DNA of 64,000 nucleotides, from assembly GCA_010093815.1 (NCBI GenBank), contig ML996567.1; one strand, 5' to 3'. This DNA comes from Pseudovirgaria hyperparasitica (Eukaryota). Of this stretch, positions 8,367 to 29,563 are shown piece by piece; position 1 is the first letter of the stretch, and each line of letters starts with the position of its first letter. Below the pieces are notes generated by a model. It worked only from the letters and a program-made list of their open reading frames with translations. It was not told the DNA's origin and searched no databases. Both the position numbers and the translations under genes were made by a program.

Positions 8367-10996
8367 TTAGATATCCTTGCGGTAAAGCATTTTCGTGTCT
8401 TTGTCCAATCTGACAAACGGTCTCAACGACCTCGAGAATTCCGCCTTGTCCTCTGGTGTCCGAAGTCGGGGCTTGAAGATGCGCATCAGCTGCGACATGG
8501 TCAAGCCTTCTGGTGGAATCGCAGCAACCACTTCTTCAGGGGGCGGCCGACCTGTAGCTGCACTGCTGACGCCAGTGGGAGTCGCAGTTCCTGAAGCAGG
8601 AGAAGTACCTACACGAAGTCAGTAAGCAGATGTTGGAGCTCCAATCAGACTGGAAACGATAACAAGTGGACAATTAGGTCAGAGAGAAGATTACAGTCTG
8701 CATTGGCAGGAGGCGGCCCACGAGTCCAGAACACACCCTATATACCGCGCCTCTCACACTCCCTTGCTCGCCGCCCGTGAAGGCTACATGCTCGGGAATA
8801 TTCGCGACGGGCATACAGGTGCTGCCGAGGCTGCCTGTGTATTCCTTACTCGCAAACCTCAACCTTACCTCAGGCTAAGGATGACAGAGTTTTCATCATA
8901 TGAGAGAGAGAGGGAAAATATAGAGAGCAGTAATGAATGTAATGCATGCACTGACCTTGCATCCTATTGGTGCCGCCGGCACTCAGGACTGCGCTCCCTG
9001 CGGTGGAGCCTCCGACCACAGCCGGACTTCCAGCTCTGCTTCCCCCTGGAGTGCCGGGTGGTGATAGTCGAAGTTTTAGTTTTTGCTTTCTTCCACCTTC
9101 TGTCATATCGCTATCGCTCCCGGAGCCAGCGCCGCCGCGAAGTTTCGATTTAAGCTTGGTTGGTGCGGATGAGGATGGAGCATTGTCGGGAGACATCGGT
9201 CGCGCATTTGTATGCGTGGGCTGGGAAAGGGCGTGCTTCTTCTTGGACTTCTTTCGTGAGGATTCATTCCCACTCATTTCTGAGAGGTTAGGAGATCCTG
9301 GGCGTTTGAGGTTGTTGGTAGCTTTCTTGAGGACATCTGATGTTTTCGGACGGCCGGAGGGTGTATTAGTACCCTTAGTAGATGTGCCTGAACTGGTCTG
9401 TTTAGGTTTCTCGGCCTCTTTGGGTTCCTTCTCCTTGGCTTTCGCCTTCTTTTCCTCTTCTTTCTTTTGCTCCTCTTCGCGTTTGCGTTCTTCATCGGAA
9501 TCAAGAGATTCACTCTGTTTTGATATTAGTGTGGTTTGGGAATTGGAGGGAATGTGCCTTACTGAGTCTGAGAAGTACTTGTTGCCGTCACTGTCTTGCT
9601 CATAATCGTAATTCTTCTCTCGCTTCAAGAGCGCCTTTCGGATCTGCTTCTCAAGTTTCCTCTGCTCCTCCGCTGCCTTCTGTTGTATCTCCTCCTGCTT
9701 CCAAACATCTTTCTCATCCCGCAACTCGAACGCGTTGGCGGCAGCTTGCTCCTTCTTGATTCTTTCCGAAGTTTCTTTCGTGTCTTCGTCTTCACCTTCG
9801 AAAAGACCATTGACACCTTCTTCATCATCGGCGAAGTCTTCTTCGGCATTGTAGTCCATTTCGCCAATGTCCTCGACCTCTCCCCTCTCGTCATCACCAC
9901 CTCTTGGTCGTTTATTATCTGACGCACCCAAGTGTAATTTCCGTGTAAGTTTTTGCTCGCGCATCTTCATCTTTTTTTCGGCATCCTTTTCCTCCGCAGC
10001 GGCGAACCAGCGCGGTGCCTTGGCCTTTGCCTGGAAAGCAGCATCTGCCTGGTCTGCAGTCCAAGTCTTGCCTCTCTGCTTCGATGTGAATCTATACCAC
10101 TTCTCCACAGGAACTAAGCGGCAGCCATTCTGATCCTTCACGAGCATGACATAATGATCCGACAGTGCAGCTTCATAGGTGCCCACCCATGTATTTTTAT
10201 TGTCGAAATCCTCTAGATGCCACGGCAGCGACTCTTCGTATCGTAGAGCTGATTTCTTCCGTGCTTCTGGTGTGTCATCTCTTCTATAAACTTGCTCTGT
10301 CTTCTTTTGAAATGCAGCCGGTTTATTCTTCTTCACTGCGGGCGCGATTTGAGCTTGATTTTCCTCTCGAATGCGCTTCCTTTCTTCCTTCATGATCTCG
10401 AGACGTTCCCGCTCCTTGTCATCTGTCTGGTTGCTTTCGCCATCATCGACCTCTTCGATCGGACCAGCACCAACGGCCGGCGCGCGAGGGTCACGACGAT
10501 GAAGGCGAAGCGGAGGCGTGAATTGCGACTCGTCGAAGAGATCTACTTTGGACCGAGCTGGCGGTGGATGAAGTCGCAGAACGTGGTGTCGCAAGCCCTC
10601 GACCATATGTTTAGGTGTCGTGTATATGGGTATAGATTGCGTTGGTTGAGGTAGCGGCCTTTGCGGTGGACCGGTGGTCGAATGCTGAGCAGCAGGCAAT
10701 GGCCGTGCCTGTAAGGCTCCAGGCTTTGCTCCTCCATTAGCCTGTGGTGGAGGGCGTGGTGGTCTGTTTGGTTTCTGGCCTGGTCTTCTATTTGGGACAA
10801 GCGGGTTAGTCTGTTGTTTCTTCCTCTTGCGCATGAGAGGTGGATTTTGAGGAGTTGAGCCCGGTAGAGCAGCAGGTGAAGCTGTGTTCGGTCGCTGAGC
10901 ATCACTTAACGGCGCTGCCGTAGAGTGGCCGTTCGCAATCGCGTTGTTGGGCATGTTCATGCCTGATGCCGAAGCAGAATACTGGTTGTATGACAT
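8367..10996 (-). CDS. TFG1: Transcription initiation factor TFIIF large subunit (Tfg1/RAP74)
   Basis: FTPPLRLHRRDPR, LRYEESLPWHLEDFDNKNTWVGTYEAALS, LVPVEKWYRF, FADDEE, LKRPGSPNLSEMSGNES. Introns 9562-9515 and 8955-8609. Last exon 8608-8367 encodes a winged-helix-like tail (PPPEEVVAAIPPEGLTMSQLMRIFKPRL...YRKDI*). Confidence 0.92.
8679..8899 (-). ncRNA. Intronic box C/D snoRNA with two guides complementary to U6 snRNA (predicted Am47 and Am70 equivalents)
   Basis: Box C ATGATGA 8899-8893; guide TGTCATCCTTAG plus D' CTGA 8873-8870; guide TAATCTTCTCT plus D CTGA 8682-8679. Guides complement conserved U6 AAGGAUGACA and AGAGAAGAUUA, and the D+5 rule lands on known U6 methylation sites. Lies in a 347-nt intron ~55-60 nt upstream of the branch site. 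Confidence 0.85.
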
Positions 10997-29123: not shown

Positions 29124-29563
29124 CAGACGTGAGCATATACAATCGGATACAATCCGAAGTACTAGATTAGGATTGTATGATTAGTCACCCTAAAAGTACA
29201 GATTGAGCTTGGAATCTATGCTAAGGGATTGAGATTGCTTGTGTTAGATTGATTAAAGTGGGTGTATAGCCGGGGCCCTATATTGGGCTATATTCAGGCA
29301 TTATTTATGCCTAAGGCTGCCATATTAGTGCCTTAGGCTAGACTTTGGGCCTTAGGTAGAAATAATGCCTGAATATGGCCTAATATTAGGCCCGCAGCTA
29401 TTTACCCCACTTTATTCAATCTAACACAATCAATCTGACCAATCAGATTAAGATTGTACCGTCTTGGCAATCATTTTGAGTCGTAGATTGAGCTTGTATT
29501 CTCTATCAAAATTTTGGCCCAGATTGAGATTGCATAGATTCGGATTGTATATGCTCACGTCTG
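29124..29563. mobile_element. Non-autonomous hAT-type DNA transposon (MITE), 440 bp
   Basis: Perfect 21-bp TIRs CAGACGTGAGCATATACAATC (29124-29144 and reverse complement 29543-29563); 8-bp TSD CTTATACA (29116-29123, 29564-29571); no ORF; many GATTG/CAATC subterminal motifs. Confidence 0.93.
29232..29436. repeat. Internal imperfect inverted repeat (~86-bp arms) within the MITE
   Basis: agattgcttgtgttagattgattaaagtggg...attcaggcattatt...cctaaggc pairs with gccttagg...aataatgcctgaat...cccactttattcaatctaacacaatcaatct. Confidence 0.9.

Follow-up and report, generated by a model that had tools for sequence, protein, structure and literature searches.

Does a single intron of the window, the 64,000-nt stretch of Pseudovirgaria hyperparasitica DNA analyzed here, encode one box C/D snoRNA directed at two sites of U6, the catalytic center of the spliceosome? 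A sequence-only reading of this DNA had proposed such an RNA, with two U6 guides, inside an intron of the TFIIF large-subunit gene. The order of the boxes, the registers of the guides, and the location within the intron are all as expected of a single box C/D snoRNA with a pair of U6 guides, and the arrangement recurs in a second fungus, so that the proposal is supported at the level of sequence. We consider it likely that positions 8899-8679 of the minus strand encode, within an intron, a box C/D snoRNA about 221-230 nt long, which would guide both U6 methylations.

Host gene and its last intron

The gene that harbors the predicted RNA lies on the minus strand and comprises the following parts near its 3' end:

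8956..10996, minus strand: coding sequence of Tfg1 upstream of the last intron, with a 48-nt intron at 9515-9562
8609..8955, minus strand: last intron of Tfg1 and putative snoRNA host, 347 nt, GT..AG, defined by sequence, spliced joint, and junction peptide
8618..8624, minus strand: branch-site-like UACUGAC (TACTGAC), from sequence
8370..8608, minus strand: last coding exon of Tfg1, with the stop codon at 8367-8369

The last intron starts with GT at 8955-8954 and ends with AG at 8610-8609, and the exon frames that flank it are joined in phase 1. The resulting junction peptide, NRMQGTSPASG, is found in a public protein with 98% identity to the exon translation. Contigs of runs X3 and X4 (the type of run is unrecorded) contain the joint 8606->8954, with 347 bases skipped, and the 48-base second intron is likewise skipped in them; no spliced joints were present in the contigs of runs X1 and X2. 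The spliced contigs and the public protein model agree with the intron as first proposed, at 8955-8609 and 347 nt, and the second intron supports the accompanying statement that most introns here measure about 50 nt.

A search with the host protein returned 828 relatives at E <= 1e-10, the best of which, at 98% identity, comes from Pseudovirgaria (Acrospermales). Many of these relatives are named TFIIF subunit alpha, tfg1, or Rap30/74 interaction domain. The Pfam family PF05793 scored 20 bits on the host protein, which is below its curated cut-off of 27.1. Judged by its orthology to the named TFIIF-alpha proteins, the host gene is TFIIF alpha/Tfg1, as the sequence-only reading had assigned it.

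Intron-containing contigs occur alongside the spliced ones in X3 and X4, contigs resolving neither RNA ends nor levels. This cover over the intron may represent unspliced pre-mRNA or an antisense transcript, and an antisense origin is favored because a canonical plus-strand GT..AG joint lies at 8622-8677. A step in X4 depth at 8678 was considered as an RNA 3' end and rejected; a variant joint, 8621->8678, falls at the contig break, and the X4 contig depths are flat means.

Boxes, guides, and predicted pairing with U6

Within the last intron, we annotated the following elements, several of which are shared with a second locus, L006, described below:

8679..8899, minus strand: predicted box C/D snoRNA, 221 nt between and including the C and D boxes, based on boxes, guides, and a homologue in L006
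8893..8899, minus strand: C box AUGAUGA (ATGATGA), from sequence, same in L006
8875..8886, minus strand: D' guide UGUCAUCCUUAG (DNA TGTCATCCTTAG), antisense to the 3' strand of the U6 internal stem-loop
8870..8873, minus strand: D' box CUGA, from sequence, same in L006
8697..8703, minus strand: candidate degenerate C' box AUGCAGA, agreeing with RUGAUGA at 5 of 7 positions and lying 3 nt ahead of the D guide
8683..8693, minus strand: D guide UAAUCUUCUCU (DNA TAATCTTCTCT), complementary to U6 AGAGAAGAUUA, same in L006
8679..8682, minus strand: D box CUGA, from sequence

All of the boxes and guides, as well as the branch site, stand where the sequence-only reading had placed them. The C box is followed by aaactc, the 12-nt D' guide, a single c, and the D' box, and 176 nt then separate the D' box from the 11-nt D guide. 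From the end of the D box, TACTGAC lies 54 nt and the 3' splice site 70 nt further on; the branch-site-like A at 8619 has the last D-box base 60 nt upstream and the 3' splice site 10 nt downstream. Both diagnostic motifs are single in the window: TAATCTTCTCTCTGA at up to one mismatch and the C-box/guide/D' pattern at up to two mismatches each occur once, and neither was matched in any of 100 shuffles.

The residue modified by a box C/D snoRNA lies opposite the fifth nucleotide upstream of D or D'. Aligned by hand, the fifth nucleotide upstream of the D box (U 8687) lies opposite the last A of ACAGAGA, the equivalent of human A47 and S. pombe A41, within a duplex of 11 bp, while the fifth nucleotide upstream of the D' box (U 8878) pairs with the A located 5' of GGAUGAC, the equivalent of human A70 and S. 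pombe A64. The D' guide forms 10 bp with a metazoan-type U6 taken from a paper, and up to 12 bp are possible; both duplexes were scored against U6 sequence conserved in other organisms. On this conserved U6, the registers originally claimed, A47 for the D guide over 11 bp and A70 for the D' guide over at least 10 bp, are both confirmed. The two D'-proximal guide bases would predict C-U at the corresponding positions in the U6 of this lineage. The paired A's are 23 nt apart in metazoan-type U6, which matches the human (70-47) and S. pombe (64-41) numbering, and the guides and their sites are colinear and antiparallel, with the 5' guide facing the 3' site and the 3' guide facing the 5' site.

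Both target residues are established sites of modification in other organisms. The reported 2'-O-methylation sites of human U6 are A47, A53, G54, C60, C62, C63, A70, and C77 (PMC8599867, PMC5855946), and S. pombe U6 is reported to be methylated at A41 and A64, with guides backed by knockouts (PMC10484740). Ascomycota do not all methylate U6, that of S. cerevisiae being described as carrying no 2'-O-methylation whatever (PMC5855946).

Recurrence in a second Dothideomycete

The same arrangement of boxes and guides, contained in 126 nt, was found on a metagenome contig of a Mycosphaerellaceae-like fungus (L006). It was the only one of 19 loci matching the C-box/D'-guide pattern in a metagenome scan that also had the exact guide and a D box downstream; the remaining 18, with no exact D guide and D box downstream, were set aside as chance matches. 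Under a looser pattern, the guide pair occurred at none of 112 prokaryotic and viral control loci (109 genome-contig and 3 viral loci), and 34 of the 131 pattern-matched loci had less than 400 nt of downstream sequence. A neighboring DUF3807 protein in L006 shares 69% identity with Septoria and Cercospora proteins. On sequence similarity, the L006 fungus is a second Dothideomycete, belonging to a different order from the window fungus.

The C box, D' box, and D guide of L006 are identical to those of the window, and 11 of the 12 nucleotides of its D' guide (GUCAUCCUUAG) are identical, at an equal distance from D'. Its C' equivalent, CUGUCGA, lies 5 nt before the guide. Both C' candidates keep UG..GA without the first GA of the consensus, as far as a call made from two sequences allows, and the D' site may assemble poorly because its C' box is degenerate in this way. 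The position within the intron is similar as well, with the D box 70 nt (window) and 76 nt (L006) before the 3' splice site. Outside the boxes and guides, the two sequences are not alignable; MAFFT misaligned the 3' halves owing to the difference in length, and the blocks were compared by eye. Conservation is judged from one homologue.

The RNA of L006 sits in an intron just downstream of the DUF3807 coding frame, and a tblastn search for Tfg1 exons in L006 found none (best E 0.2). Such snoRNAs thus move between host introns, the host being Tfg1 in the window and an intron beyond the DUF3807 frame in L006. An alignment of the last TFG1 intron across Pezizomycotina, which had been suggested as a test of conservation, would partly mislead because the host gene differs in L006.

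The features shared by the two loci bear on the role of the D' element. In a snoZ30/mgU6-47-type RNA, the D guide alone could methylate, and the D' element could provide accessory pairing with U6 that serves recruitment or unfolding of the stem-loop. The degenerate C' box of both loci would suit such a role, as would the colinear antiparallel sites, which by hand analysis could allow both duplexes to form on one U6, and Porat et al. liken sno530 to divergent C'/D' motifs that add complementarity near a methylated site (PMC10484740). However, the D' CUGA is perfect in both species and the known methylated A falls exactly at the fifth position, and accessory pairing is disfavored because it needs neither a perfect D' box nor an exact register. 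We therefore regard it as unlikely and prefer to read the D' element as a second methylation guide.

Spacer, internal stem, and hairpin

The region between the D' box and the D guide is predicted to fold into a short stem that carries a much longer hairpin:

8863..8869, minus strand: D'-side half of the spacer stem, GGUAAGG, starting directly after D', from the MFE fold of the spacer
8716..8858, minus strand: long internal hairpin, 143 nt with about 55 bp, G.U pairs accounting for 14
8705..8710, minus strand: 3' half of the spacer stem, CCUGCC, pairing with the 8863..8869 half in a 6-bp stem

The hairpin is single-copy within the window, and four consecutive wobble pairs form its base. Its predicted stability is strand-specific, at -74.8 kcal/mol for the sense strand versus -40.1 kcal/mol for its antisense; the mean over 200 mononucleotide shuffles was -49.3 kcal/mol (sd 3.8), the best reaching -61.8 kcal/mol. 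The fold of the whole predicted snoRNA has a z of -3.68. In L006, a counterpart stem, AGCUGG/CUGGCU, flanks the spacer in the MFE fold, and the spacer itself is 80 nt long and weakly folded (-21.9 kcal/mol), versus 176 nt in the window. No terminal stem of the short kind that links the two ends of box C/D snoRNAs beyond C and D was found, the 12-nt flanks giving +1.0 kcal/mol in the window and -1.8 kcal/mol in L006, no better than shuffles. Nor was there an external stem, since the whole intron flanks fell within the shuffle range at both loci.

The difference between strands and the proportion of G.U pairs (14 of 55, four in a row) raise the question of whether the hairpin is a separate module, for instance a protein-binding element, a localization signal, or a small-RNA precursor. 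Wobble-rich stems are described as localization signals of vertebrate C/D scaRNAs (PMC6298559), which is consistent with this idea. We consider it doubtful, since the short and weakly folded L006 spacer indicates that the family does not conserve the hairpin, and a search for a hairpin homologue found none.

Proposed function

By analogy with other intronic snoRNAs, the Tfg1 intron would be spliced and debranched, and exonuclease trimming would then release the snoRNA, which would be shielded by Snu13, Nop56, Nop58, and the methylase Nop1/fibrillarin. The D guide would pair with its U6 complement and direct 2'-O-methylation of the last A of ACAGAGA, while the D' guide would pair with the 3' strand of the internal stem-loop and direct 2'-O-methylation of the A 5' of GGAUGAC. 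The short stem between D' and the degenerate C' box may draw the internal boxes together, and in the window species this stem would bear the large strand-specific hairpin. The sequence elements, their registers, the intron, the recurrence in a second fungus, and the stability of the hairpin are established here; we infer processing, protein binding, the two methylations, and which bases the fungus's own U6 has where the guides pair.

A more far-reaching reading, to which we give little credence, is that one snoRNP clamps both halves of the U6 catalytic core and methylates both A's in one encounter, with an ancestral coupling of the guides and a docking role for the hairpin. One snoRNP could clamp both halves because the guides are colinear with sites 23 nt apart. 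The internal stem-loop would then be held open, and instead of providing two independent guides the RNA would serve U6 maturation as a dedicated chaperone. The coupled form could possibly be ancestral, with snoZ30 and sno530, and likewise SNORD7 and SNORD23, arising by fission, and a LARP7/Pof8-like protein or another factor specific to U6 could possibly dock on the wobble-rich hairpin.

It is very improbable that the D' guide really targets another RNA (rRNA, another snRNA, or tRNA) and fits U6 only secondarily. In fungi, snoRNA elements are reported for which two targets are predicted, 18S and U6 in the case of the D' element of snR53/CD11, but this explanation is opposed by a fit of 12 nt, by a register that falls correctly on a U6 site known to be methylated, and by the occurrence of the D' guide alongside an undoubted U6 guide in both species. 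Least credible of all is a decaying, non-functional relic or chance arrangement in an intron that is long for other reasons (a hairpin or an antisense transcript), which would suit the missing terminal stem and the unusually long spacer but not the retention of both guides and of perfect C, D', and D boxes across orders while the rest diverged, nor the absence of both motifs from the shuffles and of the guide pair from the control loci.

The predicted dual-guide snoRNA against Rfam and published catalogues

Rfam 15 gave no match to the window at gathering score, so that the comparison proposed with the sequence-only reading turned up no known dual guide at that threshold. Below it, the window aligned to RF00288 (snoZ30) with 14.4 bits against a gathering score of 50, over its 3' end only, where UAAUCUUCUCUCUGA, comprising the D guide and the D box, equals the 3' end of the snoZ30 model consensus at 15 of 15 positions. 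L006 scored 22.4 against 54 bits with RF01221 (snoU6-47) and 14.7 against 80 bits with RF01196 (snoZ30a). Afu_190 (RF01498) was rejected as an orthologue of L006; it aligned over its full length with 15.8 against 35 bits, but its consensus lacks both guides. Matches to SNORD38, SNORD51, snoR25, and similar models were dismissed as based on the C box and adjacent bases only. No match to a SNORD23 model came up in the scans of the window and L006 at E up to 10.

As far as covered here, the N. crassa and A. fumigatus surveys report no such RNA, and the Pezizomycotina catalogues covered contain no guide for the ACAGAGA A or the stem-loop A. SnoBIRD and Gao et al. 2021 make no mention of a U6 guide or TFG1. 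A search for the guide strings in literature text gave unrelated primers among the matches listed, and one for U6 motifs yielded qPCR primers for the most part.

Comparison with known U6 guides

Two-guide snoRNAs and U6 guides are each well known, and only the combination, two U6 guides on one RNA, appears to be new. A guide for the stem-loop A has been hard to find, with that of S. pombe, an atypical one, appearing only in 2023 and a mammalian one proposed only in 2025. The canonical C-guide-D' stem-loop module, coupled to an ACAGAGA guide, offers a search handle across filamentous fungi. The coupled guides predict both U6 methylations in Dothideomycetes and provide a natural system for asking whether modification at the two sites is coordinated. 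Because it carries two U6 guides, one RNA would cover the tasks of snoZ30 and sno530 in S. pombe and of SNORD7 and the proposed SNORD23 in mammals.

The closest known relatives are snoZ30, mgU6-47, and SNORD7, which are likewise box C/D RNAs with a D guide on the last A of the U6 ACAGAGA (A47/A41). They differ from the window RNA in size, the snoZ30-type Rfam models having 92-132 positions against 221 nt, and in the region upstream of D', where the snoZ30 consensus has no U6 complementarity, whereas the window RNA has its second U6 guide. For snoZ30, the function is reported as proven by knockout in S. pombe (PMC10484740, PMC5855946).

That fission yeast uses separate RNAs for the two sites, as the sequence-only reading had stated, is borne out by the description of snoZ30 for A41 and the atypical sno530 for A64 (PMC10484740). 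The latter (SPNCRNA.530) is reported to act on A64, the site also predicted for the window D' guide, through about 12 nt of complementarity, as a separate RNA whose C box is close to consensus and whose architecture leaves C and D apart (PMC10484740). The window stem-loop guide, unlike sno530, is a canonical C-guide-D' module on the same RNA as an A41-type guide. In mammals, a D'-box element of SNORD23 is placed on U6-Am70 by chimeric eCLIP (PMC11863803), again the residue predicted for the window D' guide; SNORD23 is an RNA distinct from SNORD7, whereas the window RNA joins both guides. The comparison draws on the published description for sno530, and on description together with the Rfam scans for SNORD23.

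Among dual guides of the mgU6-77 (SNORD10) type, the second target is rRNA, whereas that of the window RNA would be a second U6 site. The sole U6 guide in the Pezizomycotina catalogues covered, N. crassa CD11/snR53, is intronic and of the box C/D class like the window RNA, but has neither of the window guides. Its D' element is complementary to GAUUAGCAUGG and is directed at the N. crassa 'A47' (supplement 4, PMC2780460), which corresponds to human A53 and not to the ACAGAGA A (PMC2780460) that the window D guide would address.

Host gene and intron

The predicted box C/D snoRNA occupies the last intron of Tfg1, which encodes the alpha subunit of TFIIF. A protein search with the translated large exon returned 828 relatives (E <= 1e-10), the closest of which, at 98% identity, bears the source name of a Pseudovirgaria hyperparasitica protein, while others are often named TFIIF subunit alpha, tfg1 or Rap30/74 interaction domain. 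The Pfam TFIIF_alpha match reached 20 bits, short of the 27.1-bit cut-off. The exon frames flanking the 347-nt intron are joined in phase 1, and the peptide spanning this junction is found in the 98%-identical protein.

Features of the Tfg1 locus in the window
9515-9562, minus: second Tfg1 intron, 48 nt
8955 (GT) to 8609 (AG), minus: last Tfg1 intron, 347 nt, read from the sequence
8899-8893, minus: C box AUGAUGA, followed by a 6-nt spacer
8886-8875, minus: D' guide UGUCAUCCUUAG, 1 nt before the D' box
8873-8870, minus: D' box CUGA
8869-8694, minus: 176-nt spacer between D' box and D guide
8858-8716, minus: internal hairpin, 143 nt, in the spacer
8693-8683, minus: D guide UAAUCUUCUCU, directly 5' of the D box
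8682-8679, minus: D box CUGA
8624-8618, minus: branch-like site UACUGAC in the last intron
8622-8677, plus: canonical intron GTAAGC ... GATAAC ... TTAG, antisense to Tfg1

Contigs of two sequencing runs of unrecorded kind, X3 and X4, join 8606 to 8954, skipping exactly 347 bases, and also skip the 48-nt intron. Both runs additionally contain intron-containing contigs (for example X3 record 4, 8581-8983); none of the contigs listed is unspliced over the 48-nt intron, unlike the snoRNA intron. From these joints we infer that X3 and X4 contain cDNA; their contigs are uninformative on the ends or level of any small RNA. Contigs of runs X1 and X2 have no joints, and these runs may be the source of the window DNA.

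X4 alone has a contig, at depth 4.4, in which 8621 is followed directly by 8678; the 56 bases skipped correspond to the plus-strand intron. This antisense intron lies in exactly the stretch that separates the D box of the snoRNA from the branch site of Tfg1. The joint suggests a spliced antisense transcript over the last Tfg1 intron, which may account for part of the intron cover in X3 and X4.

Each of the two composite motifs, comprising a guide and its boxes, occurs once in the 64-kb window, and neither appeared in 100 dinucleotide-preserving shuffles. The D box ends 54 nt upstream of UACUGAC and 70 nt upstream of the 3' splice site. Re-reading of the minus strand showed that the sequence-only reading had placed the snoRNA elements and the intron correctly, distances included.

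A homologue in a second fungus

A metagenome scan for a C box, 3-10 nt, GTCATCCTTA, NN and CTGA matched 19 loci, of which one contig locus, L006, alone carries the remaining elements. The other 18 were rejected as homologues, as nothing in them fits beyond the scan pattern. As a control, a looser pattern was applied to other DNA, where it matched 109 loci in prokaryotic genomes and 3 in viral contigs. The D guide plus D box was found within 400 nt downstream in 0 of these 112 loci, although 34 of the 131 loci of all scans extend less than 400 nt in that direction.

Features of L006
1057-1183: homologous snoRNA, in a putative intron
1272-1883, minus: DUF3807 (PF12720) reading frame, upstream of the snoRNA-bearing intron

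The L006 unit spans 126 nt in the order AUGAUGA, 8 nt, GUCAUCCUUAG, 1 nt, CUGA, 80 nt, UAAUCUUCUCU, CUGA. Within a putative intron, GUACGU ... UGCUGAC ... UAUAG, it lies 40 nt downstream of the 5' site and 76 nt upstream of the 3' site. Since this intron begins about 46 nt past the DUF3807 stop codon, the snoRNA would lie in an intron of the 3' UTR or of a separate non-coding host. The best named relatives of the DUF3807 frame are Septoria and Cercospora proteins (69% identity), which points to a source in Mycosphaerellales and makes the contig Mycosphaerellaceae-like; the best relative of the window is from Acrospermales, like Mycosphaerellales an order of Dothideomycetes.

No match to Tfg1 was found in L006, and the two RNAs (n = 2 in this comparison) are unalignable beyond boxes and guides. 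This argues that what is conserved is the unit as a whole, as judged from sequence, and not its host intron.

Predicted U6 targets

All 15 positions of the D guide plus D box agree with the 3' end of the snoZ30 consensus in Rfam; in S. pombe, snoZ30 is the proven U6 A41 guide (PMC10484740, excerpt). Counted by hand against a published C. elegans U6, used in place of the species' own, the D guide forms 11 bp with AGAGAAGAUUA, placing its fifth nucleotide from D opposite the last A of ACAGAGA. On the same U6, the D' guide and AAGGAUGACA form 10 bp, with the fifth guide nucleotide from D' opposite the A that immediately precedes GGAUGAC. These registers reproduce, on C. elegans U6, the earlier proposal of an 11-bp D guide on A47 and a D' guide of at least 10 bp on A70 (human numbering). 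Like the sequence-only reading, we take human A47 to be the last A of ACAGAGA, consistent with the snoZ30 register. The two guide-facing A residues are 23 nt apart in C. elegans U6, as are Am47 and Am70 in the human site lists (PMC8599867, PMC5855946, excerpts) and Am41 and Am64 in S. pombe (PMC10484740, excerpt).

The two D'-proximal bases of the D' guide (A, G) are unpaired against metazoan-type U6. Because both are kept in the second fungus, C-U is predicted at the facing U6 positions in this lineage.

The C box GAUGA is complementary to UCAUC of the D' guide (8879-8897, minus), with the same module in L006, owing to the likeness of the U6 target GGAUGA to a C box. Folding of the free RNA pairs the two, and before proteins bind this pairing may interfere with recognition of box C.

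Architecture and internal hairpin

In both RNAs, a short stem, recognized by eye, lies immediately 3' of D' and ends 1 nt before a degenerate C'-like heptamer.

Stem and C'-like elements
Window: stem GGUAAGG / CCUGCC, heptamer AUGCAGA, 3 nt to the D guide
L006: stem AGCUGG / CUGGCU, heptamer CUGUCGA, 5 nt to the D guide

With the heptamer read as C', the elements follow the canonical order: C box and first guide, then D', stem and C', then the second guide and D. A terminal stem is absent from both the window RNA and L006, flank pairing being not above shuffles. The window and L006 RNAs lie 70-76 nt ahead of their 3' splice sites, a placement typical of splicing-dependent intronic C/D snoRNAs.

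The 143-nt hairpin folds at -74.8 kcal/mol on the sense strand versus -40.1 on the opposite strand, and its shuffles average -49.3 kcal/mol (sd 3.8, n = 200). G.U accounts for 14 of its 55 pairs, with four consecutive wobble pairs at the base. The structure is strand-specific and belongs to the RNA level; the window has a single copy of it, and L006 has none.

Elsewhere in the window, one further hairpin gave Rfam matches.
29282-29384: palindromic hairpin with repeated GCCTAAGG motifs
Each of its strands weakly matches miRNA-precursor models, at 35 bits where the gathering scores are about 80, and the element resembles a MITE-type inverted repeat.

Comparison with known U6 guides

The Rfam scan proposed in the sequence-only reading (Rfam 15) returned no known family at gathering score in the window. 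Partial sub-threshold matches to three U6-A47 guide families all arose through the D-guide end.

For the Pezizomycotina, the survey of N. crassa lists one U6 guide, CD11 (PMC2780460). Its printed duplex pairs with GAUUAGCAUGG, so its target is the equivalent of human A53 and not the A of ACAGAGA (PMC2780460, supplement 4). This target was published as 'U6-Am47', and the table names mgU6-47 as human counterpart (PMC2780460). Both of our guide strings are absent from the 55 snoRNA sequences printed there, where PDF line breaks could mask one. No guide for U6 emerged from the survey of A. fumigatus, and the fungal snoRNAome paper, in its main text, names U6 for snR53/CD11 only. In the literature searched, we found no description of one snoRNA with both these U6 guides.

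In S. pombe the work is divided between snoZ30 and the atypical sno530 (PMC10484740, excerpt), as the earlier reading had stated, whereas a single RNA would serve here. In mammals, A47 is guided by SNORD7 (PMC8599867, excerpt), whereas here the D guide is part of a joint RNA; A70 is assigned by chimeric eCLIP to a D' element of SNORD23 (PMC11863803, excerpt), likewise a D' element here. The RNA would merge two known guide functions in one molecule, which is no new mechanism.
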